From a virus, in the UHGV virus genome UHGV-0066004: DNA of 64,000 bases; one strand, written 5' to 3'. Position numbers and translations under genes: made by a program. The notes under the pieces were generated by a model. It made no database searches. It was not told where the DNA came from and saw nothing but the letters and a program-made list of their open reading frames with translations. Position 1 is the stretch's first letter; each line of letters begins with the position of its first letter. Below, in pieces: positions 1,294 to 20,455 of the stretch.

Positions 1294-2895
1294 TCAACGT
1301 CTAAGCCCCTCATACGGGTTTCCTCTCACTAAATCTGTGTGAGCACCCATTGATGGTGGCTTGAATAATTTAACTTCGTTAAGACTGTTGAAAGCATCAC
1401 TGGTAGCATCCACTTGGTCATCTTTAGTTTTGCCGTCACCACAAAAACCTTCAAGTTCTTGAAAGTAAGCTTCATTCCAACTACCTCTCAAGACTTTTAC
1501 AAGTCCAGCTTCAGAAGCAGCAGAAAATCCCGCAAAGCGGGTAACTTTATCTTTATTTGTTGGTTTGGCTCTTGCTCGATAACCTTTCTCGGCAAGTTTC
1601 CTGATGAGGGATGTTGCGTAGGATTTACCAGCAGCGCCTGGGTCTTGAGGGATAAAAATACCAGTTCGCTTACCGTCACTTTCAGCAGTCAAATTAATTT
1701 GTGTTTCGACTCCAGAGGGTCTATCTCTAAATCTTACTACATCAATGATATAATAGCAACCGTCTTTTTTAGATTTACCCATCTTAACACCTGCTGTCCA
1801 GTCTGGATTAGGGTTAATCTCAGATGGTAAAGTTGCTGCTAAGTCCCATGCTCTAACATCAAATACATCTTCTGGGAGTGAATCAACAACCTCACACCAT
1901 TGCCTTTGCCAATAGTTTGAACCTTCTGCACGAGCCTTCCAGTTACCGAAACGAAGTCTTGCAACGTTTACAGGGGTGTTGTTTTCCAACTTACCACGGT
2001 ACTTAGGTTCTAAGAAGTCAAGGATTGGGTTATCATCAATCGTACCAGAGATAAAGGTGTATGTTTGAGGAATCTCAAGAGGGAACATTTCAAGAATCTT
2101 GTCTCTCTCCCAATCAGAAACCATCACACCATCGTTCATTACATACCAACGAATACGACCACATTTTTCAGGGTCTGGATAGCCTTCTTCATCTAAGAAT
2201 GGCTCTACCCAATCGTAAATAAAGTGGTCTCTGTCTGGGTTCATGGAAATCTTCATGTATGAATCACCTTCAGCACCAGAACGTAGACGGGTTTGTAGGT
2301 ATGAAATCTGTGAAGCAGAGAAGTGTGTACCTTCGTCAAAGTAAATAGCTGAGTATTCAATACCCTGATGACCTTCAGCGTGCTTTTCAAGTTCTAGATA
2401 GGTAAACTTGATAGTTGCCCCAGAAGGGAATGTGATAGTCATCTTCTGCTCGTGAGGAACCCCACCAAACTTACCAAATAGTTTCTTTGCAGCAGGCCAC
2501 AAACCACCTTGTAACTGTGTTGTATTTCGACGGAAATATACAGCGTTATAATTAGGGTCGTCAATAAACCTTAAAGAGTCCATTAACAATGCAGCAGTCT
2601 TACCAGCACCCGCAGCACCACCATAGAGAACCAAGTCAGCATTAGTATTTAAAAAGACCTCTTGAGAACCCGGCTGAGGGGCTACATAGTTCTTATCAGT
2701 CATCAATTTGAAGATAAGTCTAACTTGGTCTGGTGTGTATCTTAATAAAGTCAGAATTTGAGTTGGAAGGAATTTAGAGGGGTCTTTACCGAATGATTTG
2801 ATAATTTCTTTTACTTCATCAGAAAGCCCCAACTCTCCAGCTAGGACTTTCCTAACATCTTCCACTCGCTTCTGCTTAACAGCATTTAAGTCCAT
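1294..2895 (-). CDS. terL: terminase large subunit
   Basis: 538-aa ORF with Walker A P-loop (GGAAGAGKT) and C-terminal nuclease-like region; start moved to ATG at 2895 (MDLNAV) preceded by GGAGGTG, since the track start appears to be a TTG. Confidence 0.85.
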   Translation of the reverse strand: MDLNAVKQKRVEDVRKVLAGELGLSDEVKEIIKSFGKDPSKFLPTQILTLLRYTPDQVRLIFKLMTDKNYVAPQPGSQEVFLNTNADLVLYGGAAGAGKTAALLMDSLRFIDDPNYNAVYFRRNTTQLQGGLWPAAKKLFGKFGGVPHEQKMTITFPSGATIKFTYLELEKHAEGHQGIEYSAIYFDEGTHFSASQISYLQTRLRSGAEGDSYMKISMNPDRDHFIYDWVEPFLDEEGYPDPEKCGRIRWYVMNDGVMVSDWERDKILEMFPLEIPQTYTFISGTIDDNPILDFLEPKYRGKLENNTPVNVARLRFGNWKARAEGSNYWQRQWCEVVDSLPEDVFDVRAWDLAATLPSEINPNPDWTAGVKMGKSKKDGCYYIIDVVRFRDRPSGVETQINLTAESDGKRTGIFIPQDPGAAGKSYATSLIRKLAEKGYRARAKPTNKDKVTRFAGFSAASEAGLVKVLRGSWNEAYFQELEGFCGDGKTKDDQVDATSDAFNSLNEVKLFKPPSMGAHTDLVRGNPYEGLRR

Positions 2896-2916
2896 TAAGC
2901 ACCTCCGCAAATAGAA

Positions 2917-3117
2917 TTATTCAGAGTCTGTAGCAGTCTCTTCTTTCTTAACTTCGAACTTTGCATCAACAGCATCAAGAAGTGCATCCATAGATGCTTC
3001 TTTAATATCAATGCCTGTTGCTACAGATAATCTGTCTGCAATTGCCATGATAGTATTCTGCATAAATTCTAGCTTCTTGTTAGCTTCATAAAGTTCTTTA
3101 TAAACGGTCTCGCTCAT
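2917..3117 (-). CDS. small acidic protein upstream of terL (function unknown)
   Basis: 66-aa ORF, GGAGAA SD 7 nt upstream, 6-nt gap to terL. Confidence 0.5.
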   Translation of the reverse strand: MSETVYKELYEANKKLEFMQNTIMAIADRLSVATGIDIKEASMDALLDAVDAKFEVKKEETATDSE

Positions 3118-3342: not shown

Positions 3343-3418
3343 TGGAGAATCCGAAGGGACTCGAACCCTTATAAACCTGTTTTGCAGACAGGCACATAGC
3401 CATTTCTGTCACGGATTC
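3343..3418 (-). tRNA. tRNA-Cys(GCA)
   Basis: T-arm GGGTTCGAGTCCC, 7-bp acceptor pairing GAATCCG/CGGATTC, anticodon loop CTGCAAA, encoded CCA; hand-folded. Confidence 0.65.
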
Positions 3419-3422
3419 AAAT

Positions 3423-3515
3423 TGGAGGAAGATACCAGACTTGAACTGGTACACCGATTTCTCAGCTACTGGCAGTTTAGCAAACTGCTCCCTTACCTTT
3501 TAGGGTTAATCTTCC
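3423..3515 (-). tRNA. tRNA-Ser(GCT), type II
   Basis: 93 nt, long variable arm, T-arm CCAGTTCAAGTCTGG, acceptor GGAAGAT/ATCTTCC, loop TTGCTAA. Confidence 0.6.
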
Positions 3516-3517
3516 AT

Positions 3518-4252
3518 TTATTTCTGTAATGCGTTCTTCATTTCTGGTGTTGCAATAGTGTCAATTACACCAGTTTTACAAGCATCATCAAACCAGTCTG
3601 GTAAGATACCTGCTAAGAACCCATTGATATTCGTTTTAAGGTACTCTGCAATAAGGGCAGCTTCTTCTTCAATCATCTGCACAACTTCATCTGCATAAGC
3701 TGTAATCTTTGAGATACCTTCATTAATCTTACTGACAGCTTGGTTAGCTAAATCAGAAACAGTATCAAGACCCTTGTCAATAGCGTCTTGTAAGTCACTT
3801 AATACATCGTTAACACTCTCTAGTGTACTGTTAATCGTATCAATAGCTTTTTGACCATATTCTGTAGCAACACCCATAATACCACTGAACGGTGTACAAC
3901 CAACTTGTTCTCCTGCTGCACCCATAACATTGGAATATCCCTTTGCTACCTGCATACGTGATGAAAACTCATCAATAGATTTTTGACCGTAGTCTGTCAG
4001 GGTCTTAGTAGTTGCTGTAGTGCTTGTAAGGCTTGTTGTAAAGCTGTTTAGAAGGACTGTTGTAAGTCCAGCAGCAACAAGCTTATCCTTTACTGTAGGG
4101 TCTGATACAGAGCTAATAGAGCTTACAAGTGATGTAGAGGCAGCTACGGTTCCACCGAGAACTGCTGCACCAGTAATAAGGGGGTTAGAAAACCCTTTAC
4201 CGGTTTTTAAGAGATTGAAAATCTCCTTACCTTGTTCTGTCATCTCTTTCAT
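3518..4252 (-). CDS. Ser/Thr-rich hypothetical protein inside tRNA cluster
   Basis: ORF in track; start trimmed to ATG at 4252 (AAAGGTG SD) because the upstream part overlaps tRNA-Phe. Confidence 0.45.
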   Translation of the reverse strand: MKEMTEQGKEIFNLLKTGKGFSNPLITGAAVLGGTVAASTSLVSSISSVSDPTVKDKLVAAGLTTVLLNSFTTSLTSTTATTKTLTDYGQKSIDEFSSRMQVAKGYSNVMGAAGEQVGCTPFSGIMGVATEYGQKAIDTINSTLESVNDVLSDLQDAIDKGLDTVSDLANQAVSKINEGISKITAYADEVVQMIEEEAALIAEYLKTNINGFLAGILPDWFDDACKTGVIDTIATPEMKNALQK

Positions 4253-4268
4253 TAAGCACCTTTGAAAT

Positions 4269-4345
4269 TGGTAGTCCAGTGGGATTTGAACCCTCTTCTC
4301 ATGTTTTTCAGACACGCGCTTTAACCATATAAGCTACTTGGACTA
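4269..4345 (-). tRNA. tRNA-Phe(GAA)
   Basis: T-arm GGGTTCAAATCCC, acceptor TAGTCCA/TGGACTA, loop CTGAAAA. Confidence 0.6.
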
Positions 4346-4350
4346 TAAAT

Positions 4351-4426
4351 TGGGGTGACCTACGGGATTTGAACCCGTATAGACCATGTTCACAGCATGG
4401 GTCATTACCGTTTATGATAAGGCCAC
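4351..4426 (-). tRNA. tRNA-His(GTG)
   Basis: T-arm ACGGGTTCAAATCCCGT, loop CTGTGAA, encoded CCA. Confidence 0.65.
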
Positions 4427-4457
4427 ATTTAAGGACTCTCGTAAGAATCCTTAGAAG

Positions 4458-4533
4458 TGGCAGCGGCATAAGGATTTGAACCTTAATAAGACAGCTTCAG
4501 AGACTGCTGCATTGCCAGTTATGCTATGCCGCT
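4458..4533 (-). tRNA. tRNA-Gln(CTG)
   Basis: T-arm TAAGGTTCAAATCCTTA, acceptor AGCGGCA/TGCCGCT, loop CTCTGAA. Confidence 0.55.
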
Positions 4534-4538
4534 AAATT

Positions 4539-4617
4539 TGGTACTCCATATCGGATTCGAACCGATACATAACACAGATTTTAAGTCTGGCCTCTCTGCC
4601 AATTGGAGTAATGGAGC
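4539..4617 (-). tRNA. tRNA-Leu-like (anticodon TAA?), atypical
   Basis: Perfect T-arm ATCGGTTCGAATCCGAT, discriminator A, Leu-type D-loop AATTGGCAGAG, loop CTTAAAA, but no long variable arm in my fold. Confidence 0.35.
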
Positions 4618-4619
4618 AT

Positions 4620-4695
4620 TGGCGGGGGATGTTGGAATTGAACCAACTTCTTCGATTTCAAAGACCGAGGTTTTAACCTTGTAAACTAATCCCCT
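4620..4695 (-). tRNA. tRNA-Gln(TTG)
   Basis: T-arm GTTGGTTCAATTCCAAC, loop CTTTGAA, encoded CCA. Confidence 0.55.
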
Positions 4696-4703
4696 TTAAA
4701 TCT

Positions 4704-5261
4704 TTACTTTCTCAGTGGATGAATAAAGAATGCCAACATAACTCTTTCCCTTGAGAATGCTCTTTCTTCTGGGACAACACTTTTTAGTTTCCATCCAATA
4801 TAAATTCTCCAGTAAAATTGTTTACCAAAGATTTTAATTGATGGGATAAAAGCGAATAATCCCCAAGCATTACTGTTCCACATTAGGAGATAACCTGTCT
4901 GATTATCTTCAGGGTCAGAACTTACGTTGATATTACCTTTCCACTTAGTAACATCTTTTACATCTCTTCCTAATACATGGTAAGAGAAGTTATAAGCTTT
5001 GTTTCTCCAGAGCCATCCGACTCTTTGCATGTAGACACCTAGTTTACCAATCCATCTGATATTAGCCCATCTTTTAACGTGACCTTCATCACCATCAATT
5101 GGGTTGTCATATGTCTCCATCCATCTGAACCCGAAAGGTAAGTGTCCTTTCTTCTCACTGTAGAATGGAACTACGAAAGGTGCTAAGATAACTGCTAGTA
5201 TTGCTGCAAGTGGTTCTAGCAAAGCTAAGAAAATCCATGAAGCATATTTTAAGTATCTCAT
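4704..5261 (-). CDS. membrane protein (hydrophobic N-terminus), function unknown
   Basis: 185-aa ORF between tRNA sub-clusters; N-terminal TM-like segment. Confidence 0.5.
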   Translation of the reverse strand: MRYLKYASWIFLALLEPLAAILAVILAPFVVPFYSEKKGHLPFGFRWMETYDNPIDGDEGHVKRWANIRWIGKLGVYMQRVGWLWRNKAYNFSYHVLGRDVKDVTKWKGNINVSSDPEDNQTGYLLMWNSNAWGLFAFIPSIKIFGKQFYWRIYIGWKLKSVVPEERAFSRERVMLAFFIHPLRK

Positions 5262-5500
5262 TGTCTAACCCTCGTAAGGAGGTAAGCATTATTACTTGTT
5301 TCTGAGCTTTCTGGTAACATTGTCTCAAAATTGACACTTTTAAGTTGTCTTCCACCAAAGCAATGACCAATAAATCTTTCTACTTTTATTGGGTCGCATT
5401 CCCATCCGACTTTTAAGAAAATGTGGGTATCTATAGTGGGAACCCTTACAAACTCAATACTATTGGGATTTTCATGTTCAACGACGATTAATGTTTGCAT
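5258..5500 (-). CDS. hypothetical protein
   Basis: 80-aa ORF with ATGA-type overlap onto downstream gene. Confidence 0.4.
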   Translation of the reverse strand: MQTLIVVEHENPNSIEFVRVPTIDTHIFLKVGWECDPIKVERFIGHCFGGRQLKSVNFETMLPESSETSNNAYLLTRVRQ

Positions 5501-5518
5501 AAATTCCTCTTGCTTATC

Positions 5519-5594
5519 TGGCGCAGGATAAGGGATTCGAACCCCTATTAACAGTTTCGTAGACTGTTGCTCTATCCATTTGAACTAATCCTGC
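5519..5594 (-). tRNA. tRNA-Arg(ACG)
   Basis: T-arm GGGGTTCGAATCCCT, acceptor GCAGGAT/ATCCTGC, loop CTACGAA. Confidence 0.65.
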
Positions 5595-5599
5595 AAAAT

Positions 5600-5677
5600 T
5601 GGTGTTCCAAGACGGATTCGAACCGTCACTAATACAAGGTTTGAGCTTGCATCCTCTGCCAATTGGGATACTGGAAC
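5600..5677 (-). tRNA. tRNA-Leu-like (anticodon CAA?), atypical
   Basis: T-arm GACGGTTCGAATCCGTC, D-loop CAATTGGCAGAG, loop CTCAAAC, discriminator A; short variable arm. Confidence 0.35.
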
Positions 5678-5678
5678 A

Positions 5679-5753
5679 TGGTACTCACTAAAGGACTTGA
5701 ACCTTTTTCTTCATCTTGTAAGGGTGGTGTTTTACCATATAAACTAAGCGAGT
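5679..5753 (-). tRNA. tRNA-like gene with disrupted anticodon stem (possible pseudo-tRNA)
   Basis: Good acceptor, D-arm GTTTATATGGTAAAAC and T-arm AAAGGTTCAAGTCCTTT, but I cannot pair an anticodon stem. Confidence 0.3.
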
Positions 5754-5848
5754 GTGAAAGAGGTCTGAAGTTGTGCCGCTAACTCAACTCCGTGGAATTT
5801 GTTACGGTCTTCAGTTGACACCAGCGGTCTTTCACTTGACCTCTGAAT

Positions 5849-5925
5849 TGGTGCTGCTCACAGGACTCGAACCCGCATTTCCATCCTTACAAGGGATGTG
5901 TAATAGCCAATTATACGAAAGCAGC
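5849..5925 (-). tRNA. tRNA-Thr(TGT)
   Basis: T-arm GCGGGTTCGAGTCCTGT, anticodon stem CATCC/GGATG, loop CTTGTAA. Confidence 0.65.
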
Positions 5926-5932
5926 ATTAATT

Positions 5933-6007
5933 TGGAGCATCCAGAGGGAATCGAACCCTCAACCTCAGTTTGGAAGACTGTAATTTTCCCGTTTAAACTA
6001 TGGATGC
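5933..6007 (-). tRNA. tRNA-Gly(TCC)
   Basis: T-arm GAGGGTTCGATTCCCTC, acceptor GCATCCA/TGGATGC, loop CTTCCAA. Confidence 0.6.
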
Positions 6008-6013
6008 ACTAAT

Positions 6014-6089
6014 TGGTGGAGAAGCAGGGAATTGAACCCTGTACTTAAGTTTGCAAAACTTATGTTTTAACCATGTAAACTACATCCCC
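6014..6089 (-). tRNA. tRNA-Ala(TGC)
   Basis: T-arm CAGGGTTCAATTCCCTG, anticodon stem TAAGT/ACTTA, loop TTTGCAA. Confidence 0.6.
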
Positions 6090-6095
6090 AATGTA

Positions 6096-6171
6096 TGGTA
6101 CAGGTGGAGGGAATTGAACCCATCGTCTTACTGATTAAGAGTCAGCCGCATAACCATTTTGCTACACCTGC
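6096..6171 (-). tRNA. tRNA-Lys(CTT)
   Basis: T-arm GGGTTCAATTCCC, loop CTCTTAA; paralogous to the Lys(TTT) gene at 7323. Confidence 0.55.
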
Positions 6172-6178
6172 ATTAATT

Positions 6179-6256
6179 TGGTAGGAGACAAGGGATTCGA
6201 ACCCTCAAACACCAACTTCTAAGGATGGTAGGTTTACCAATTACCGTCAATCTCCC
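6179..6256 (-). tRNA. tRNA-Leu-like (anticodon TAG?), atypical
   Basis: T-arm GAGGGTTCGAATCCCTT, D-loop TAATTGGTAAA, loop CTTAGAA, discriminator A; short variable arm. Confidence 0.35.
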
Positions 6257-6512
6257 ATTAAATCTTTTTAGAGAACTTCTAAGAACCTAAGCAACAAGGT
6301 TCCACAACAAGCTGTAATAACCTTAGAAGCCCTCTAAAAAGACCTAAAAAGGTCTTTGCATAGTCTTGTTTAATCCGGTGACTAGAACCTTTGGAGAGCT
6401 TGATATTATCTCTTCTCCGTGACACATACTAGGTGCTTTACTGTGCTTGTACGACAATACACGAGGGATACCAAAGCAACATCCGAATGAAGCTTGGCTT
6501 TAAACCTTATTA

Positions 6513-6602
6513 GGCGGTAAGTAAAGGAGTCGAACCCTCACCGTATCTCTACAGTGGCAACTGTTTTCAAGACAGTTTGGCTACCATTAGCCGCTACCTA
6601 CC
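6513..6602 (-). tRNA. tRNA-Ser(TGA), type II
   Basis: 90 nt, T-arm GAGGGTTCGACTCC, anticodon stem ACTGT/ACAGT, loop CTTGAAA, long variable arm. Confidence 0.6.
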
Positions 6603-6615
6603 CCTAATAAGACTT

Positions 6616-6698
6616 TGGCATGGGACGGAGGAGTTGAACCCCTTTGAAACGGTTTTGGAGGCCGTTGCTCATGCCTTAGAGTCTTAACATCGTCCCAT
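6616..6698 (-). tRNA. tRNA-like, 83 nt, anticodon unresolved
   Basis: Perfect acceptor ATGGGAC/GTCCCAT and T-arm GGGGTTCAACTCC; internal AACGG/CCGTT hairpin with 9-nt loop; cannot assign anticodon. Confidence 0.3.
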
Positions 6699-6840
6699 AT
6701 TATAATTCGAAGCTTACCGTATTATCTCAACACTGTAAAGCCCCTTCTCAGATTATTTACATGTTCTGGAAAACATGAGATACAGACCACCTCCCTACAG
6801 GAAGACCCGCTTAGGTCGTCTAAGTAATCTGCTAACTAAT

Positions 6841-6917
6841 TGGCACACCCTACAGGATTCGAACCTGTAACTAACGATTTAGAAGACCGTTGCTCTATCC
6901 AATTGAACTAAGGGTGC
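6841..6917 (-). tRNA. tRNA-Arg(TCT)
   Basis: T-arm ACAGGTTCGAATCCTGT, loop CTTCTAA, encoded CCA. Confidence 0.65.
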
Positions 6918-7164
6918 ATTAATCTTTAAAGACTCTCTTAGAAAGCCCTTAAAGATGCCCACCTTATTAATCATACCGTGGGCTAGTACGCCAAATTCTT
7001 TGATGAGGGATTGGAAGACCTCACTGGTGTTTAGCCTATCAAGCTACTGCCAGAAAAACATTGTCGTTTGCATTTATTTTAAATTTGCAAAATAGACGCT
7101 ACGCAACGAAAACTAAGGTTACTATAAAGTAGTCACATCTCAATGTCAACAACTTTATTGAAAT

Positions 7165-7240
7165 TGGTACTGGTAGGTGGAATCGAACCACCGATGTTCC
7201 CTTATCAGGGGAGTGTTATAACCTTCTTAACTATACCAGC
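7165..7240 (-). tRNA. tRNA-Ile(GAT)
   Basis: T-arm GGTGGTTCGATTCCACC, loop CTGATAA. Confidence 0.6.
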
Positions 7241-7241
7241 T

Positions 7242-7318
7242 TGGAGGTTCAGATGGGAATCGAACCCACATTCATAGGGCTTATGAGACCCTTGCATTAC
7301 CTTATCTGCGACTGAACC
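7242..7318 (-). tRNA. tRNA-Met(CAT), elongator-like
   Basis: T-arm TGGGTTCGATTCCCA, loop CTCATAA, G1-C72 paired. Confidence 0.6.
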
Positions 7319-7322
7319 ATAT

Positions 7323-7398
7323 TGGTAGAAGTGGAGGGATTCGAACCCATCGCCTGTCAGATTAAAAGTCTGCTGCATCACCATTCTGCTACACTTCC
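7323..7398 (-). tRNA. tRNA-Lys(TTT)
   Basis: T-arm GGGTTCGAATCCC, loop CTTTTAA. Confidence 0.55.
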
Positions 7399-7403
7399 AT
7401 TAA

Positions 7404-7546
7404 ATTATCTTTGTAGATAAGCTACCCAGACTTGCTTAAGGTCTGTAGCGATGTGCCTTGTTGGGTTTAAATCTAGAATTTACCCTTTCACCCTTTGTGG
7501 TCGCATACTCACAGGTAAGCTTAATAACTTATCTACAAAGATAATT
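7404..7546. repeat. pair of inverted 18-bp hairpin elements (TTATCTTTGTAGATAA / TTATCTACAAAGATAA) about 107 bp apart
   Basis: Exact reverse-complement arms at 7404-7421 and 7529-7546, each arm itself a 5-bp stem hairpin. Confidence 0.7.
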
Positions 7547-7589
7547 ACCAGACCGTTGTTTATCATCTTAAGTGCTACCATTACACCAA

Positions 7590-7680
7590 CTCGACATCTG
7601 CCGAGTGAAGGAATCGAACCTTCGCCTTTTCTTTACCGGAGAAATAGATTGTTTAAGTTTTGCTGTAAACGGTCTTCTGT
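7590..7680 (-). pseudogene. tRNA fragment or pseudo-tRNA (T-arm only)
   Basis: Perfect T-arm GAAGGTTCGATTCCTTC with acceptor-like 3' strand but no matching 5' acceptor strand and no CCA. Confidence 0.3.
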
Positions 7681-7826
7681 AAATTTGTTGAGCCAGACCA
7701 AGTTTAAATTTTCAAAATTAAATTGGCTTGAAATTTCATACGTTCTTGCTGTATTTGGTCTTCTGCTCCTTTAAAGGATACTCGTAAGGACCCTTTAAGG
7801 GAGGGGCTAAATAGCCCTCTCAAAAT

Positions 7827-7904
7827 TGGCGGTTACGAAGGGATTTGAACCCTCATCATCTCCCGTGACAGGGGAGTATTTTAACCAAATTAAACTACAT
7901 AACC
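7827..7904 (-). tRNA. tRNA-Asp(GTC)
   Basis: T-arm GAGGGTTCAAATCCCTT, anticodon stem CTCCC/GGGAG, loop CTGTCAC. Confidence 0.65.
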
Positions 7905-7909
7905 TTTAT

Positions 7910-7997
7910 TGGTGTGCCGTGTAGGAGTCGAACCTACCGAGTCTCAATGACAAGGGATTTACAGTCCCCACCGCTACCATCTACGGGATAACGACAC
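7910..7997 (-). tRNA. tRNA-Tyr(GTA), type II
   Basis: 88 nt, T-arm GTAGGTTCGACTCCTAC, loop CTGTAAA, long variable arm. Confidence 0.6.
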
Positions 7998-8006
7998 ATT
8001 TAAATT

Positions 8007-8083
8007 TGGCGGTTAGTCAGGGATTCGAACCCTGTGCCATTCGCTTAACAGGCGACCGCACATACCTTATATGCTTCCTAACC
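8007..8083 (-). tRNA. tRNA-Asn(GTT)
   Basis: T-arm CAGGGTTCGAATCCCTG, loop CTGTTAA. Confidence 0.55.
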
Positions 8084-8160
8084 TTAATACATTGCCAGAC
8101 CGTGTTTTTTCTTTTATCCGCAAAAAGTATTTTGTTGCTGAATACGGTCTTCTGCAAAAT

Positions 8161-8237
8161 TGGAGGCGGGTGCAGGAGTCGAACCTGCCGATACCATGCT
8201 AATGAGACATGTGAGACGCCCTTTCTCTATACCCGCA
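8161..8237 (-). tRNA. tRNA with CAT anticodon (Met, fMet or Ile2)
   Basis: T-arm GCAGGTTCGACTCCTGC, loop CTCATTA, unpaired 1-72 position. Confidence 0.45.
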
Positions 8238-8327
8238 ATTCTCAATGACCAGACCAAATATCTTCTTTGTCCGATTTCGTGTCAGATGAGTAGATTAAGT
8301 TTGCTGTAATTGGTCTTCTGTCAAAAC

Positions 8328-8405
8328 TGGCGTTCCAGAAGGGATTTGAACCCTCAGATATCCACTTTGAAAGAGTGGTGACTTTACCATTTTGTCTACT
8401 GGAAC
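8328..8405 (-). tRNA. tRNA-Glu(TTC)
   Basis: T-arm GAGGGTTCAAATCCCTT, anticodon stem CCACT/AGTGG, loop CTTTCAA. Confidence 0.65.
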
Positions 8406-8412
8406 ATTAATT

Positions 8413-8489
8413 TGGTCTCTGTTGGAGGACTTGAACCTCCGGCCTTACCGCCCCAAACGGAACGCTCTACCAAGCTGAGCTAAACAGAG
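8413..8489 (-). tRNA. tRNA-Pro(TGG)
   Basis: Canonical D-arm GCTCAGCTTGGTAGAGC, T-arm GGAGGTTCAAGTCCTCC, loop TTTGGGG. Confidence 0.6.
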
Positions 8490-12152: not shown

Positions 12153-13282
12153 TTAAAGCAAAGACTTACCCAGACTTCAAAGAGTTTGTGAAGGGCTTCA
12201 TTGCAAATGTAAAGGCTGGTAAGAGATATGATTTTAGAACATATCAAGAGGCTATTTTACCACTCACCTATAGTTCATATTGGCCTGAAGCTGATATTGC
12301 AGAAGTTGAGAAGTTTGACTACAAACCAGACTACAAAGTTCCATTTAGTGATGAGTTGCTTTACAGCGTTGGTGCTCAAATGAGAACGTCTGACTTCTTC
12401 ATGGACTTACAATATGCAATTATCAATGGTAAAGACGTTGATACAGTTTATTGTGAATGGCTGGCAAGAGTTAAACCGTTCTCAATGTTGAATGCTAAGT
12501 TGAAGGATGCTATCAAGCCACCATCAATCACTCAGCAACCAACCAATCAAACAGTAAATGAAGGGGGTACACTTACCCTAATCGTTATTGCAACTAATGC
12601 CACTGGATATCAATGGAAAAAGGATGGTGAGGACATCCCTAGTGCCAATTCTGCAACTTACACAAAACAGTCAGTAGCACCTTCTGACGCTGGTTCATAC
12701 ACTTGTGTTGTATCTGGAGAGGGTGGAACAAGTGTTACCTCAGATGCAGCAACAGTGACTGTGAACGCACTACCTGTGATTACACAACAACCTTCTAGCC
12801 AGACCATCAATGAGGGTGGAAACATCAGCTTGGAAGTGACTGCAACGGGTGCAACGGGTTACCAGTGGAAGAAAGATGGCTCTGACATTCCTTCAGCGAC
12901 AAATGCTACCTATAGCAAGTCTGGTGCTCTGCCAGCAGATGCAGGTTCATACACTTGCGTTGTAACAGGTGCAGGTGGTTCTGTTACTTCTAGCCCTGCA
13001 ACAGTTACTGTGAATGCACTTCCGGTAATCACTCAGCAACCAACCAATCAAGAAATCACTGAAGGTGAGACCTTAACACTGAATGTTGTGGCAACAGGTG
13101 CGACAGGTTATCAGTGGAAGAAAGGGGAGGAAGACATCCTCGATGCAACTACTGCAACTTACACCAAAGAAGGTGCAACCACTGCTGATGCAGGAAGCTA
13201 CACCTGTGTAGTGACTGGCGCAGGTGGCTCTGTAACATCTAATGCGGCAACAGTTACAGTTAACCCAGCAGGGGAGGCATAA
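12149..13282 (+). CDS. protein with three tandem Ig-like domains
   Basis: Three ~83-aa repeats with I-set-like signature (YQWKKDG...ATYT...AGSYTCVV); nucleotide-level tandem repeats. Confidence 0.65.
   Translation: MIKAKTYPDFKEFVKGFIANVKAGKRYDFRTYQEAILPLTYSSYWPEADIAEVEKFDYKPDYKVPFSDELLYSVGAQMRTSDFFMDLQYAIINGKDVDTVYCEWLARVKPFSMLNAKLKDAIKPPSITQQPTNQTVNEGGTLTLIVIATNATGYQWKKDGEDIPSANSATYTKQSVAPSDAGSYTCVVSGEGGTSVTSDAATVTVNALPVITQQPSSQTINEGGNISLEVTATGATGYQWKKDGSDIPSATNATYSKSGALPADAGSYTCVVTGAGGSVTSSPATVTVNALPVITQQPTNQEITEGETLTLNVVATGATGYQWKKGEEDILDATTATYTKEGATTADAGSYTCVVTGAGGSVTSNAATVTVNPAGEA
12520..13272 (+). repeat. three tandem ~250-bp coding repeats (Ig-like modules)
   Basis: Near-identical stretches such as atcactcagcaaccaaccaatcaa recur at a ~250-bp period. 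Confidence 0.7.
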
Positions 13283-13746
13283 TGCAACTCTCAAGAAAAG
13301 GTTTAGAAGCTATTAAGTTCTTTGAAGGTCTTAAGCTGGAGGCTTACGAAGATTCTGCTGGAATCCCTACAATTGGGTATGGGACAATCCGTATTGCTGG
13401 TAAACCTGTTAAGATGGGTATGAGAATCACGGCTGAACAAGCTGAACAGTATCTTCTCGCAGATGTTGAAAAGTTCGTTGCAGCAGTGAACAAAGCCATC
13501 AAGGTTCCAACTTCTCAGAACGAGTTTGATGCACTTGTAAGTGAAACATACAACATTGGCATCACAGCTATGCAGGACTCTACATTTATCAAGCGCCACA
13601 ACGATGGTAATAAGGTCGGTTGTGCAGAAGCTATGCAATGGTGGAACAAGGTTACAGTCAAAGGTAAGAAGGTCACTTCAAACGGCCTGAAAAACAGACG
13701 TAGAATGGAAGCTGACATTTATCTTGACAGTGTATATCCAAAGTAA
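13282..13746 (+). CDS. endolysin, T4-lysozyme-like (GH24)
   Basis: N-terminal FEGLKLEAYEDSAGIPTIGYG matches GH24 catalytic Glu region. Confidence 0.75.
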   Translation: MQLSRKGLEAIKFFEGLKLEAYEDSAGIPTIGYGTIRIAGKPVKMGMRITAEQAEQYLLADVEKFVAAVNKAIKVPTSQNEFDALVSETYNIGITAMQDSTFIKRHNDGNKVGCAEAMQWWNKVTVKGKKVTSNGLKNRRRMEADIYLDSVYPK

Positions 13747-13796
13747 TATCTTCATAGGCTCCTTCGGGAGCCTTTTTATTTTCTAAGGAGAAAACT

Positions 13797-14195
13797 ATGA
13801 AACTTTGGGCTGATGATGTTGGAACTTTTAAGTACACTCGCAATGGCTCAATGGTGAGAATCATTGGGAGTAACATTGTTACAATTGGTGATAGGGTGAA
13901 CACAATGTTCACTGTTGAGTTGGCTGAACTCTCACCTATTGAATCCGCTAACAACGGCCTGTTCAAGTTTGAAACTTACCATGTAAATGAACACGGGCAG
14001 TTTAACACTTTAGGTGAAAGTGGCCTTGATATTATTTCAGAACACCCCTTGACAAGAGGGCAGCTTGCAAGTTACTATAAAACAGTTCTTGAAAGGGCTT
14101 TGGCAACACATGAGAATGAGGCCAGATATCACATAGAACGCTGTGAAGTTTTAAGAGAAAAAATCGAACAAGCAGAGAGAGGTTTTTATGAATAA
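13797..14195 (+). CDS. hypothetical protein
   Basis: ORF in track, tightly packed operon. Confidence 0.5.
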   Translation: MKLWADDVGTFKYTRNGSMVRIIGSNIVTIGDRVNTMFTVELAELSPIESANNGLFKFETYHVNEHGQFNTLGESGLDIISEHPLTRGQLASYYKTVLERALATHENEARYHIERCEVLREKIEQAERGFYE

Positions 14196-17486: not shown

Positions 17487-17951
17487 ATGAAAATTAAAGA
17501 AGTCGTTCAAAAAGCAATGCTTGGCAACTCAACTAAAGATGAAATGTACAAAGAGATTTGTGATAAGTTGAATTGTTCAAGACATGCTGCTAAGGCTCTT
17601 GTACATTGTTTTATCTGGGAATGCTCAGAGGCTTATATGCAATATGTAGCTTTTGAAAGTTCTCACTTGCTAGGTGATGTAGAAGCTGGTGATAAGCTAA
17701 AAGAGCCTGAGATGAAAACAGTCCCTAGAGTCGGTAACACATACCCTCTTAAAGATTTCAAGACTGGAAAGATTGTTGCAAAAGGTGTAGTAGAATCTGT
17801 CTATCATGATGGTAAATACTTACTTAAAATATTTGAGTATGACAGCCACTATACGCACTTATGTGGGATTACATTCTTAGTAACAGAAGAAGACCTTATT
17901 AAGAACAACAGCAACAAGTTTGCAGTACCAGCCTACCAAGTTTTACGATAA
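17487..17951 (+). CDS. hypothetical protein
   Basis: 154-aa ORF. Confidence 0.5.
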   Translation: MKIKEVVQKAMLGNSTKDEMYKEICDKLNCSRHAAKALVHCFIWECSEAYMQYVAFESSHLLGDVEAGDKLKEPEMKTVPRVGNTYPLKDFKTGKIVAKGVVESVYHDGKYLLKIFEYDSHYTHLCGITFLVTEEDLIKNNSNKFAVPAYQVLR

Positions 17952-17964
17952 TGGTGTGATAGCT

Positions 17965-18513
17965 ATGGAAAAAGATAACTTAAAAGAAGTTGAAGGTAAC
18001 TACCTAGTGCTTGACTGGAGTGATATCCGAGAAGCACTCTCCGAAGAAAATCTTGACTGGTTCGAACAAATTATCTTTGCAGTACGGCATAACAGAGAAG
18101 TTGAAAATGGTAAAGAGCCATTAGAAGGAATCTTTGTAGAGAGGTCTTATCCGTTCTATGAAGACACTTTACAAAAAGTTAAAATGTACTTTAAACAGAA
18201 GAACCGTAAAGTGGTCACTATGGTATCTCTTGGTGGACAGAGTATGTCTGTGATGGAAGATATCAACCCTAAGAGACCGAGTAAAGGTGTTTGTATAAAA
18301 ATCACAGGACATGAAGAGTATATCTCAGTGGCTGACTTTAGTGCATTCTGTAGTGGTTCTTGTGTCTTTAATGGTTTTCACTATGATATCCGAGTGTACC
18401 CAATCAAGGGAGATGATATCATGATGCAGATATTCGATAACAACAATGGATTCACTCATTTTTATCAGACAACTAAGCCATCCCTAAAAACAGTTCTGGA
18501 AACACTGATTTAA
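17965..18513 (+). CDS. hypothetical protein
   Basis: Start set to first ATG after upstream stop (MEKDNL). Confidence 0.45.
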   Translation: MEKDNLKEVEGNYLVLDWSDIREALSEENLDWFEQIIFAVRHNREVENGKEPLEGIFVERSYPFYEDTLQKVKMYFKQKNRKVVTMVSLGGQSMSVMEDINPKRPSKGVCIKITGHEEYISVADFSAFCSGSCVFNGFHYDIRVYPIKGDDIMMQIFDNNNGFTHFYQTTKPSLKTVLETLI

Positions 18514-18524
18514 AATATCTTAAG

Positions 18525-18552
18525 AGCCTCCTTAATTGGGGGCTTTTTAATT
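18525..18552 (+). terminator. intrinsic terminator ending the plus-strand cluster
   Basis: AGCCTCC-ttaatt-GGGGGCT stem followed by TTTTTAATTTTT. Confidence 0.6.
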
Positions 18553-19159
18553 TTTATAAAATTTTATCGGTTGTCCCAACCTCTGGGTCACCATCATATG
18601 TGAATAAAATATCTACCCTTCTTAACAACCTTCTTAATCTTACTCTCTATATAGTTATATAGTACTATATAGTATCTTAGTAACTATCTAGTGGTCTTAA
18701 TAGCCCTCTGTATAGCCCTTCTAAATAGCCATCTAAACACTCTTCTAACAAACCTTCTTAACAATCTATACAATCACCTTAACCATCTCTCTACATCCTC
18801 TTAGAAGCTCCTATACACCTCTTAATCTCTATGTTAGCTATGTTACTCTCTATAGGTGTTCACTAGGAAATACTAAGCCTCTATATAGACTGTTTTAACA
18901 AACTTAACAGGAATATCTTTACAGGCCTTATCTCACAAGGTCTAACACGGTACTAACAAGGTATCTTATAAGCCTGTTTCTACCTGTATTTTTAAAAGAC
19001 TGTATAGGTAATTATTCAGAATTTTAAAATTTTTATAAAATAGGACTATCAAGTCATTTTTTAGGGTCTTTGAAGGAACTGAAAAATATCTGTAGAAGAT
19101 GTATATCTGCTTGGTAGCCCTTAACAGCTCCCTTACAAGTACTTTGCAAAATTTTAAAA

Positions 19160-19400
19160 TATCCTTAACAATCTCTTAACAGCTCTCACATCTTCTTAAC
19201 AACTCTTCAAAGGTCTTAACAGACTCTTAACAGAACTAACAAGGGTGTAACAGTTTCTTAACAGTTGATACATAGGCTTAACAGAATCTTAACAGATGAC
19301 TAACAAGAGCTAACAAGTTAATTTTAAAGAGTTATTTTGTTAAGATAATTAACAAGTTTCTAACAAGTGTTTAATCTTTTTAACAAGCTATTAACACGGT
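19160..19400. repeat. dense cluster of CTTAACA(G/A) / CTAACAAG iteron-like words
   Basis: More than 15 copies of cttaacag, ctaacaag, ttaacaag within ~240 bp of non-coding DNA. Confidence 0.6.
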
Positions 19401-19668
19401 CACTATCTCTGGTCTTATCGTTCCCTTCTCCTCTTAGTGATTCTTTAAACATACCTCTTAAAAGCTCTCTATAGCTCTTTATAGGCTCTTTTAAGCATCT
19501 TCCTAGTATTTACCCCTCAACTGTATGGATAGCTCTTTATAAGGCTTTACAGGAGCTTTTAAGGCTATGCCAAAGATTCTTACAAGGCTTTTACGTGGTC
19601 TTAACAGAGATTTAACAAGGGGCTAACAAGTTGCTAACAAGTGCCTTAAAAGCATAACTATGTAGGGT

Positions 19669-19720
19669 TTGTTAAGAAATTGTTAAGAAATTGTTAAGAA
19701 AATGTTAAGAAAATGTTAAG
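19669..19720. repeat. tandem 11-12 bp repeat (TTGTTAAGAAA) x ~4.5
   Basis: ttgttaagaaa ttgttaagaaa ttgttaagaaa atgttaagaaaa tgttaag; reverse complement of the CTTAACA word. Confidence 0.8.
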
Positions 19721-20144
19721 GGGGCTAGCATTTACGTAACTTTATAGCCTCTTTTACGTAACTTTTAAGCTACTTTTAAGCCCCTATAACATACTTTTAA
19801 GACAATAACAAGCCCTTTATAGTAGTTCACAAGAATACTAACGAGATGATAAAGCTTACACCCTTATAAGATTCTTTTAAGGCTCTGGGAAGCTCTAGGA
19901 AGGGCTTTTTAGAGTGGGTTAATATGATTGCTTAAGTTAGGTTGATAAGGCTGTTATAGAGCTTTATAGAGCGTTTTAGTGGTTGCCCTTCCCTTTCGGG
20001 TTATGGGCTTACATTTAAGGGAAAGATTAAGTTGATTTGATAAAAGGCTATAGAGTAGACTATAGAGTTATTGCTTTTTAAGGTCTGGTAAAGTTCTGAC
20101 TTGTTAGGTGGGTTTTAAGATTCTGGAAAGGAATTTGATAGACG

Positions 20145-20168
20145 TAAAAAAGCCCCATTTAAGGGGCT
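20145..20168 (-). terminator. intrinsic terminator ending the early-gene array
   Basis: Minus strand GCCCC-TTAAAT-GGGGC followed by TTTTTT, 40 nt after stop at 20207. Confidence 0.6.
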
Positions 20169-20206
20169 GTAAAGGTATCTGGGGCTATTTAGCCCCGTTG
20201 CGGCGT

Positions 20207-20455
20207 TTAGTTAGTGCCTTCTTTGTCGTAGTACAGGGAGACGATTTTTTCTCCCCAATAGTGATAAGTGTGACCATGCGTAAGAACTTCCTGTTTTGTT
20301 TCCTCCCAGAATTCATCAGAGGGGTTGTAGTCACTGATGGTCTGACTGATAAGGCCTTTCACCATTTCAAAGGCGTTATCAGTACCTACAAGGTCAAATT
20401 TAACGTCCAGAGAGTAGAAGCCAAATTCGTTAACAGTTGCGCGGATAGTAGCCAT
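20207..20455 (-). CDS. small early-type protein
   Basis: 82-aa ORF preceded by type A leader and AGGAGA SD. Confidence 0.55.
   Translation of the reverse strand: MATIRATVNEFGFYSLDVKFDLVGTDNAFEMVKGLISQTISDYNPSDEFWEETKQEVLTHGHTYHYWGEKIVSLYYDKEGTN

Follow-up and report, generated by a model that had tools for sequence, protein, structure and literature searches.

The analysis identified the gene-free region at positions 18553-20144 of the window (the whole 64,000-nucleotide stretch of phage DNA under study) as the likely concatemer junction of a Felix O1-like (Ounavirinae) myovirus, in which a dense set of iterons probably positions terminase-type cleavage. The window belongs to Felixounavirus, and the region matches 257 Felixounavirus-type records. 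A concatemer-type junction, which the initial annotation had missed, is the main explanation of the gene-free stretch. As proposed here, the junction would consist of a single 613-bp copy of the direct terminal repeat (DTR) and of two unique arms lying just inside each virion end, with each arm closed by the terminator of the gene cluster transcribed towards that end.

The region had been described as the longest non-coding stretch of the window, set between convergent transcription units with terminators on both strands, and the ORF and terminator maps bear out this description. When ORFs of 70 aa or more are considered, the largest gap in the 64-kb window spans 18514-20107 (1594 nt), the runner-up (6013-7450) being full of tRNA genes. 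An ORF scan down to 20 aa detected no ORF longer than 37 aa wholly within the region, which is AT-rich (34% GC), and a tRNA scan of the region found none. Tiny ORFs annotated in the region in some records are not credible in view of 11-nt indels. The genes on both flanks converge on the region. The plus-strand cluster, whose last ORF lies at 17920-18513, is closed by an intrinsic terminator at 18522-18547 (a 10-pair stem followed by a T run), a hairpin retained in 14 of 14 aligned genomes, and the minus-strand cluster, with its last ORF at 20207-20455, is closed by a terminator-like hairpin at 20151-20168.

The position of the DTR follows from homology to relatives with known ends. Published work has mapped the ends of UAB_Phi87 by Bal31 digestion and run-off sequencing (DTR of 608 bp) and those of Ro111lw (613 bp) and Pr103Blw (581 bp, also annotated) with PhageTerm, and a DTR of 570 bp is annotated for HP1. 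The annotated DTRs of Pr103Blw and HP1 align to 19113-19725, a non-coding segment of 613 bp that is present as one copy in the junction-spanning window. For Ro111lw, the distance from the boundary motif to the record end is exactly the published 613 bp, and the record start fits as well. For UAB_Phi87, the motif distance is 614 bp versus the published 608 bp, and the predicted terminal SpeI fragments measure 4431 and 2751 bp versus the reported 4322 and 2819 bp. From this homology to the mapped ends of relatives, we infer that the ends of this phage lie at 19113 and 19725. Erwinia phage Fifi318 was considered as an additional end marker and rejected; its record, which reportedly begins at PhageTerm position 1, opens upstream of the terminase operon and not at the junction. 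Most database records, the window included, were opened at arbitrary positions, and the junction is hidden in them.

Both DTR boundaries carry a motif that shows no variation across 14 genomes representing three genera. By homology, the left boundary motif GTATATCTGCTT^GGTAGCCCTTAACA (19101-19126, plus strand) would be cut or nicked at 19112/19113, the boundary at which the Pr103Blw and HP1 DTRs terminate. Its TGTATATCT(G/A)CTT portion is also retained in Erwinia-type phages, whose records open there. The right boundary motif ..AATGTTAAGGGGGC^TAGC (19708-19729, plus strand), in which AAGGGGGC^TA is invariant in the 14 genomes, places a putative cut or nick at 19725/19726 on the same grounds, and the records of Pr103Blw, Ro111lw and HP1 begin with its reverse complement, GCCCCCTTAACA. 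Several other GenBank records open at the same two boundary positions, and 12 of the 36 records of Kolesnikvirus (Erwinia phages) open at the homologous ones. Read inward 5' to 3' from either cut, the sequence has the same start, G..GCCC(CC)TTAACA, and continues into further iterons. The inverted relation between the two boundaries is short and imperfect, with an equal score reached in 1 of 2000 shuffles and with the nearest TTAACA 8 nt from the cut on one side and 6 nt on the other.

The iterons are strongly over-represented in the region. TAACA is found 30 times on the plus strand of 18553-20144, versus 3.0±1.7 expected from 1000 dinucleotide-preserving shuffles, and 10 times on the minus strand, versus 2.4±1.5 under the same procedure. 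The longer words CTTAACA (13 observed versus 0.3 in shuffles) and TAACAAG (11 versus 0.23) are likewise enriched in the region, and CTAACAAG has 7 copies in it and none on the plus strand of the other 62 kb. The 14 copies of CTTAACAG outside the region have no context in common. Base composition, named in the initial annotation as an explanation that would undermine the reading of these words, does not account for them, since the enrichment survives dinucleotide shuffling. Direct TAACA cores cluster at 19122-19392 (17 cores) and 19602-19635 (four cores), matching the concentrations previously noted at 19160-19400 and 19590-19650. The dozens of words claimed there hold as some two dozen clear iterons in two clusters, not as many dozens. 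A wider word class, CTNNNNAG, made up of octamers in sub-families, totals 59 members over the whole region.

Within the DTR, the iterons fall into three arrays. Array A (19120-19398, plus strand) comprises 17 direct (C/T)T(T)AACA(G/A) cores and one inverted copy at 19338, with spacings of 11, 20 and 31 nt, which are multiples of about 10.4 nt. A central segment without TAACA cores (19401-19589, plus strand) contains phased CTCTATAG, CTTTATAG and CTTTTAAG words, and is followed by array B (19600-19642, plus strand), with four direct cores at an exact 11-nt spacing. Array C (19669-19720, minus strand) consists of five inverted iterons in a tandem of TTGTTAAGAAA, the reverse complement of the iteron core; it has a period of 11, 4.7 copies (roughly 4.5 had been reported earlier) and 97% matches. 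In the end-mapped orientation, array C makes up the outermost ~55 nt at the left end of the virion DNA. Its terminal 11-mer is present in three copies in 16 of the 16 relatives compared and in five in the window; judging from match lengths, VSe11 and VSe102 apparently have four copies and GEC_vB_NS7 has five, as in the window. Iteron cores are spaced by 11, 20-22, 31, 42, 51-53 and 62 nt, and 10.4 nt is the strongest periodicity in the DTR, with no stronger 10-11.5-nt periodicity elsewhere in the window.

The two arms adjoining the DTR are also rich in repeats. The unique non-coding left arm (18553-19112), located inside the virion left end in the end-mapped orientation, holds phased CTNNNNAG words, CTATATAG palindromes (18647-18692), a 12-nt TCTAA array (18695-18767), four TAACA cores (18896-18958) and an AT-rich TTTTATAAAAT box (19031-19041) with a second copy at 18552-18562; enrichment of this box in the window is not significant (9 matches versus 5.0±2.6). 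Compared with the window, the left arm shows a mean column identity of 95% in Felixounavirus and of 75% in Mooglevirus/Suspvirus, and it includes long invariant blocks. The unique non-coding right arm (19726-20150), which precedes the right-end DTR in the virion, carries TTTACGTAACT and CTTTTAAG/CTTTATAG/CTATAGAG repeats, and the direct repeats previously noticed beyond the tandem array are the TTTACGTAACT and CTTTTAAG copies at 19731-19781. It also contains a small conserved hairpin (19985-20008), in which the bases of KhF2 differ yet still pair. Among four elements subjected to single-strand folding, only the right boundary folds somewhat better than shuffles (z = -1.97), the left boundary, the AT-rich box and the small hairpin folding no better.

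Conservation is stronger in the iteron cores than in the spacers. TAACA cores are 83% invariant, versus 45% for the spacers (Fisher p = 5e-13), and aligned identity between genera reaches 84% in the region versus 67-72% in the neighbouring ORFs. Array A is conserved in Kolesnikvirus. The Erwinia-type phages, too, have CTTAACA arrays, along with three inverted copies that abut the boundary; their match to the region is otherwise confined to about 80 nt. Counterparts in related phages, the lack of which had been put forward as grounds for dismissing the element, were thus found, with boundaries and cores conserved across genera.

Cleavage at the DTR boundaries is expected from the large terminase subunit. 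This enzyme is encoded 16 kb from the junction (1294-2910, minus strand) and matches the Pfam domains Terminase_6N (E 7e-42) and Terminase_6C (E 4e-33), as well as phrog_979 (E 2e-233). Searches with PHROGs, Pfam and PDB sequences recognised no small terminase subunit in ORFs close to either the large terminase or the junction, and none is annotated in the fully annotated relative I14.1; these sources yielded no other DNA-binding protein either. A candidate partner is the 66-aa ORF immediately upstream of the large terminase (2917-3117), to which the searches assigned no function; a DUF7217 protein is encoded at 3518-4315. Five ORFs flanking the junction received no function from PHROGs or Pfam, and the PDB sequence search returned no usable match for the large terminase, a 197-aa ORF beside the junction or the 66-aa ORF. 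A published analysis found only the large terminase in the Felix O1 group, and in a published terminase tree, enzymes of the Felix O1 type, to which that of the window belongs, fall in a DTR group.

The most likely task of the iterons is to provide recognition and positioning when the terminase cuts and the repeat is duplicated. Oriented repeats stand directly beside both cleavage sites, as expected of a terminase site: the first direct iteron begins 8 nt from the cut at 19112/19113, and the last inverted iteron, in array C, ends 6 nt from that at 19725/19726. The helically phased TTAACA iterons would serve as binding sites for a factor acting in maturation or packaging, which may be a small-terminase-like protein or the terminase itself. 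Such a factor could assemble on one face of the DNA and position cleavage at GCTT^GG (19112/19113) and GGGC^TAGC (19725/19726). Given that the same inward start is found at both cuts, one recognition complex could introduce nicks on opposite strands at a distance of 613 bp. The repeat would then be copied by strand-displacement synthesis, so that both daughter genomes receive it, in line with the classical T7/Watson model. Binding of a protein to the iterons, its nature and this nick-and-fill chemistry are what we infer from the layout of the sites. Together, the ~27 iterons in the DTR and ~1 kb of equally conserved flanks exceed what terminase recognition obviously needs, and the region is therefore likely to have additional or different functions.

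The initial annotation had proposed a replication origin, a partition site or a packaging/injection signal. Packaging, or genome termini, is the part of this proposal that agrees with the data, with iterons inside the DTR and a switch of orientation at one of the two cut sites, and nothing was found in favour of partition. No ParA or ParB is annotated in I14.1. Phages of this group are virulent, and we know of no plasmid prophage stage reported for them. An origin, in which the arrays and the AT-rich boxes (19009-19045 and 19140-19160) would be bound by a phage initiator instead of, or besides, acting in packaging, is conceivable, though rather unlikely. Repeats that are direct, oriented and in helical phase, with conserved cores, do form the classical pattern of iteron origins, AT-rich palindromic boxes lie nearby, though their folding is not distinctive, and the sites outnumber what cutting alone seems to need. 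However, no initiator-like gene adjoins the region, an annotated relative having only a distant primase/helicase, and DnaA boxes are at chance level. GC skew, a check that had been suggested for this locus, shifts only where gene orientation shifts and gives no origin signal, and the arrays are bound to the two cut sites by both position and orientation. A broader reading starts from the CTNNNNAG octamers, about 59 of which are phased across the whole 1.6 kb, from the stronger conservation of the region relative to neighbouring genes and from the same inward motif at both virion ends. It is doubtful, but imaginable, that the region acts as a nucleoprotein platform coated by a phage DNA-binding protein, with a role beyond terminase targeting such as protection of ends from host exonucleases, pairing of ends into concatemers or replication start at ends; if true, this would amount to a phage 'telomere' system. 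The stricter proposal that these words nucleate a telomere-like end-binding nucleoprotein, which would act on the ends after ejection by protecting or organising them, or would control ejection itself, and would not guide the terminase, appears improbable. It draws on the shared inward G..GCCC..TTAACA motif and iterons at both virion ends, on conserved repeats reaching ~500 bp past the DTR on each side, on the higher conservation of the region relative to neighbouring genes, and on a published study according to which the same-genus phage Bas63 lacks a RecBCD inhibitor. Against this, no candidate protein was found. Moreover, in T7-type phages repeat arrays adjoin the terminal repeats and are not known to have a telomere-like role.

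High nucleotide conservation without any ORF, together with the hairpin at 19985-20008 and its alternative pairing bases in KhF2, could point to non-coding RNAs or a promoter/regulatory cluster, but this is very unlikely on several counts. Scanned against Rfam with a permissive threshold, 18300-20400 yielded three weak, chance-level matches, all below half the gathering score of their families; no tRNA is present, the hairpin folds no better than shuffles, and sigma-70 promoter-like sites show no excess (8 versus 6.7±2.5). Both flanking units, furthermore, end in terminators pointing into the region, and the combination of conserved 5-8-nt cores, variable spacers and 11-nt indels is a pattern of protein-binding DNA. 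We give almost no credence to the notion that base composition, or neutral tandem duplication in junk DNA, produced the word enrichment as a side effect. The AT-richness of the region and the varying copy number of the terminal 11-mer (3, 4 or 5) would fit it, but the TAACA count stands at 30 versus 3 in dinucleotide shuffles, cores are kept across genera while spacers drift, and the architecture is retained in Erwinia-type phages.

A junction with packaging signals, the preferred reading, bears on phages that are widely used in Salmonella and E. coli typing, biocontrol and therapy, and whose engineering is on the rise. Knowledge of the ends enables corrected assembly and annotation of arbitrarily opened records, and true ends are needed for genome rebooting and for the design of packaging signals in transducing or reporter particles. 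The iterons also provide a testable handle on how a terminase for which no small subunit is recognisable locates two sites separated by 0.6 kb and brings about duplication of the repeat. A terminal repeat is a known and biologically expected kind of element, so the value of these results lies in detail and not in concept; its repeats appear unstudied so far. In the literature on Felix O1-like DTRs we found presence and length reported, and no description of iterons, phasing, an inverted boundary motif or conserved flanks. The identity of the locus is largely known, and its iteron architecture appears to be undescribed.

Several known systems share parts of this architecture. At the T7/T3 junction, a short exact terminal repeat is flanked by arrays of short repeats, and the gp18/gp19 terminase matures the concatemer while the repeat is duplicated. 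The region analysed here resembles it in having a non-permuted short DTR, non-coding junction arrays and one repeat copy per junction that needs duplication. It differs in that the main arrays are found within the repeat and not just next to it, the repeat has roughly four times the length, the terminase belongs to the T4-like Terminase_6 type, and neither a small subunit nor a phage RNA polymerase pause mechanism is evident. Specificity determinants lie near the genome termini in both cases, the packaging recognition sequences of T7/T3 being placed within 5% of the termini by one published source. Arrays bound by small terminases, exemplified by the lambda cosB R sites, SPP1 pacL/pacR boxes and P1 pac hexamers, likewise flank a cleavage site with short oriented repeats, phased for DNA to wrap round or run along an oligomer. 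Those arrays comprise 3-7 repeats within 100-200 bp, and their small-subunit partner is known, whereas here ~27 cores occupy 613 bp with two cut sites and a partner was not found. Iteron origins (lambda ori, P1 oriR, theta plasmids) share the direct repeats of a single core at helical spacing and the nearby AT-rich segments; unlike them, the region has no adjacent initiator gene or DnaA-box excess, and its arrays are anchored to genome-end cuts. In Twort-like and SPO1-like phages, 'bracket' inverted repeats border long terminal repeats, and a short inverted sequence similarly marks both DTR borders here, but those phages belong to another group and their terminal repeats are kilobases long, bear genes and lack iteron arrays. 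The DTRs of the Felix O1-like phages UAB_Phi87, Ro111lw, Pr103Blw and HP1 share the locus, the boundary sequences and the length class of the segment at 19113-19725, which is their orthologue.

The gene-free region at 18553-20144 very probably contains the physical ends of the genome. It matched 257 phage records, nearly all of the Felixounavirus type, with hosts among Escherichia, Salmonella, Shigella and Citrobacter and with best full-length matches at ~90% identity; in Felix O1 the counterpart lies at 12212-14041, between ORF23 and ORF24. In these similarity searches, several matching records began or ended in the region, at two recurring positions. The terminal repeats annotated at both ends of Pr103Blw (581 bp) and Citrobacter phage HP1 (570 bp), identical within each record, align in reverse orientation to 19113-19725. 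Published work reports direct terminal repeats (DTRs) of 581 bp in Pr103Blw and 613 bp in Ro111lw, both obtained with PhageTerm, and an experimentally mapped DTR in UAB_Phi87, where two SpeI fragments were Bal31-sensitive and run-off sequencing yielded 608 bp. The Ro111lw record opens with GCCCCCTTAACA, the reverse complement of 19714-19725, and exactly 613 bp separate this start from the other boundary motif. The UAB_Phi87 boundary motifs lie 614 bp apart, and the terminal SpeI fragments predicted for this phage, 4431 and 2751 bp long, fall within ~100 bp of the reported sizes (4322 and 2819 bp). The repeat in the window measures 613 bp; across 14 genomes, the shortest predicted repeat is 569 bp (Felix O1) and the longest 659 bp.

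Since the region aligns with the mapped or annotated DTRs of relatives, the window crosses a junction, with the arms of the right and left ends on either side of a single repeat copy. Circular assembly of a DTR genome, followed by opening at some other place, gives a sequence of this form; the Felix O1 record, to take one case, is opened at rIIA. The Erwinia phage Fifi318 record (PQ051114.1), described as starting at PhageTerm position 1, opens upstream of the terminase operon and not at the junction. I14.1 (PP892526.1) carries a Tequintavirus taxonomy line, and its sequence and paper place it in Felixounavirus.

The ORF scan of the 64-kb window confirmed this locus as the longest non-coding stretch proposed in the initial annotation, with no ORF of at least 70 aa at 18514-20107 and none above 37 aa inside the region; the sole comparable gap (6013-7450) is filled with tRNA genes. 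The terminators postulated on both strands correspond to terminator-like hairpins at 18522-18547 (+) and 20168-20151 (-), each closing one of two converging gene clusters. In the left arm, the unique sequence preceding the repeat, the AT-rich near-palindrome TTTTATAAAAT occurs twice in identical form, just past the terminator (18552-18562) and 72 nt before the DTR boundary (19031-19041); both sites are conserved across three genera. The right arm carries a small conserved hairpin (GCCC..CCCTTTCGGG..GGGC, 19985-20008), where KhF2 differs in sequence with pairing still possible; its folding energy was no better than that of shuffles.

Dinucleotide-preserving shuffles of the region placed the word enrichment far above composition, with 30 instances of TAACA on the + strand versus 3.0±1.7, 13 of CTTAACA versus 0.3 and 11 of TAACAAG versus 0.23; CTAACAAG occurs seven times in the region and is absent from the + strand of the remaining 62 kb. 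The clusters described initially were recovered as 17 direct cores at 19122-19392 (array A, 19120-19398) and four at 19602-19635 (array B, 19600-19642), and the tandem repeat at 19669-19720 (inverted array C) as a TTGTTAAGAAA array of period 11 with 4.7 copies and 97% matches, after which come TTTACGTAACT and CTTTTAAG repeats. Two features extend that description. Core-to-core distances (11, 20-22, 31, 42, 51-53 and 62 nt) correspond to whole turns of the DNA helix, placing the sites on one helical face; the dominant periodicity in 19113-19725 is 10.4 nt, and no stronger 10-11.5-nt periodicity was detected elsewhere in the 64-kb window. Furthermore, CTNNNNAG words, 59 in total, make up the whole 1.6 kb and fall into sub-families by region: CTATATAG is the left-hand form, CTTAACAG/CTAACAAG the central one and CTTTTAAG/CTTTATAG the right-hand one. 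Outside the junction, CTTAACAG presents 14 solitary copies (2875, 8044, 8781, 9321, 13406, 26752, 35491, 38762, 44772, 48970, 51113, 52367, 56395 and 63084), a modest excess over the ~4 expected for the whole window, with no flanking context in common.

Sequence comparison locates the predicted cuts (^) at 19112/19113 on the left (...GTATATCTGCTT^GGTAGCCCTTAACAG) and at 19725/19726 on the right (...AAAATGTTAAGGGGGC^TAGCATTTACG). All three arrays lie within the repeat, array A beginning 8 nt from the left cut and array C ending 6 nt from the right one. Read inward 5' to 3', either cut is followed by G(GTA)GCCC(CC)TTAACA and then by further CTTAACA units; the stretch over which this inverted relation holds is short, and of 2000 shuffles one gave an equally good alignment. 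All 16 relatives inspected have three units in array C, no more and no fewer; for other records, match lengths indicate three in most, four in VSe11 and VSe102, and five, as in the window, in GEC_vB_NS7. The 4.5 copies reported initially thus represent a two-unit expansion of a terminal array that normally has three, although an assembly artefact is conceivable for the five copies of the window. This 11-mer array would sit at the very end of virion DNA, with a polymorphic copy number.

An alignment of 14 genomes spanning Felixounavirus, Mooglevirus and Suspvirus points clearly to constraint on cores and boundaries. None of the 14 departs from GTATATCTGCTT^GGTAGCCCT or AAGGGGGC^TA, and TAACA-core positions are 83% invariant versus 45% for spacers of the same arrays (Fisher p = 5e-13, a value that overstates independence among related genomes, the pattern being plain in the alignment itself). 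Moogle and SUSP1 align with 84% identity in the region versus 67-72% in flanking ORFs, and indels occur in steps of 11 or 22 nt. The gene-free region is hence under selection as DNA. Chance or base composition as the source of the words is excluded by the shuffle counts and core-versus-spacer conservation. Several relatives (L008, L011, L012, L014, L016, L017 and PC79-13) sporadically carry 22-27-nt inserts at differing junction sites (window equivalents ~18535, ~18553, ~19098, ~19260, ~19313, ~19404, ~19430, ~19815, ~19980 and ~20140), several near-palindromic (GGGATTGGTAACAATACCAATT, TTGATTCGGTAGAATCTACCTCAT / ATGGATTCGATAGAATCTATCTCAT, AGTGGTTGTTTACAAACACAAC and TGAGTAAAATTTACGAAATTTATA are examples). 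Their appearance is that of very small mobile hairpins, and the window has none.

In the Erwinia-type Kolesnikvirus, BLAST similarity is limited to ~80-110 nt in array A. The counterpart is a gene-free region of ~1.45 kb between converging clusters, with 12 CTTAACA copies versus none in 4.6 kb of flanks, spaced by 9, 11, 20 and 22 nt as in the window. At the far boundary the array again ends in three inverted units. The flank word is a different one (CTTAGAAG), and TGTATATCT(G/A)CTT, just outside the repeat, is retained. Record starts fall at the predicted left (within 2 nt) or right boundary in 12 of 36 cases, those at the right within 1 nt bar two 8-9 nt off, and therefore suggest a repeat of ~439 bp. 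Conservation across the subfamily therefore extends to the termini and where they lie, and to the iteron system.

These features would most likely be explained by a phage protein oligomer that binds the iterons and places terminase at the two boundary sites. The motifs next to the boundaries point inward on opposite strands, so a single type of complex might nick at 19112/19113 in the top strand and at 19725/19726 in the bottom strand; strand-displacement synthesis over 613 bp would then provide each daughter genome with a full repeat. T7-type short repeats are classically modelled as duplicated in this way, by nicking followed by strand displacement. The large terminase is encoded at 1294-2910 (-), beside 26 tRNA genes, with gene order as in relatives; that tRNA cluster (3343-8489, -) adjoins the terminase operon and is typical of the phage group. 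Neither the surroundings of the large subunit nor one fully annotated relative showed a recognisable small terminase, a published analysis of the group lists the large subunit only, and PDB sequence searches returned nothing. The slot directly upstream of the large terminase, where a small terminase is expected, holds a 66-aa ORF (phrog_4397; 2917-3117, -) and a DUF7217 protein (3518-4315, -), an order shared by Fifi318.

Cutting alone would not need this many sites, nor 0.5-kb arms that are equally conserved, and for this reason a packaging role for the iterons is about an even call, set against high confidence in the identity of the region. Among the functions initially offered, packaging or termini gained support from arrays lying inside the DTR and abutting the cuts, and a partition site found none in the fully annotated relative. 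The iteron pattern and AT-rich boxes would suit an origin, whether as the sole or an added function, but no initiator gene or DnaA-box excess accompanies them, and the GC-skew analysis suggested initially gave no origin signal. A nucleoprotein that binds or protects the ends is another possible reading and, if true, would be more novel than packaging. RNA genes or promoters are unlikely. A tRNA scan of the region found no tRNA gene.

The literature searched on the Felix O1-like repeat reports its presence and length alone, and the original paper on the Felix O1 genome names other direct repeats without discussing this region. The iteron architecture, helical phasing, inward-facing boundary motif and subfamily-wide conservation hence appear to be undescribed. 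The locus itself is the DTR already known from Felix O1-like phages and is of the same kind as the short-DTR concatemer junctions of T7 and T3, with their repeat arrays; it also resembles pac and cos recognition arrays and, in formal terms, iteron origins.
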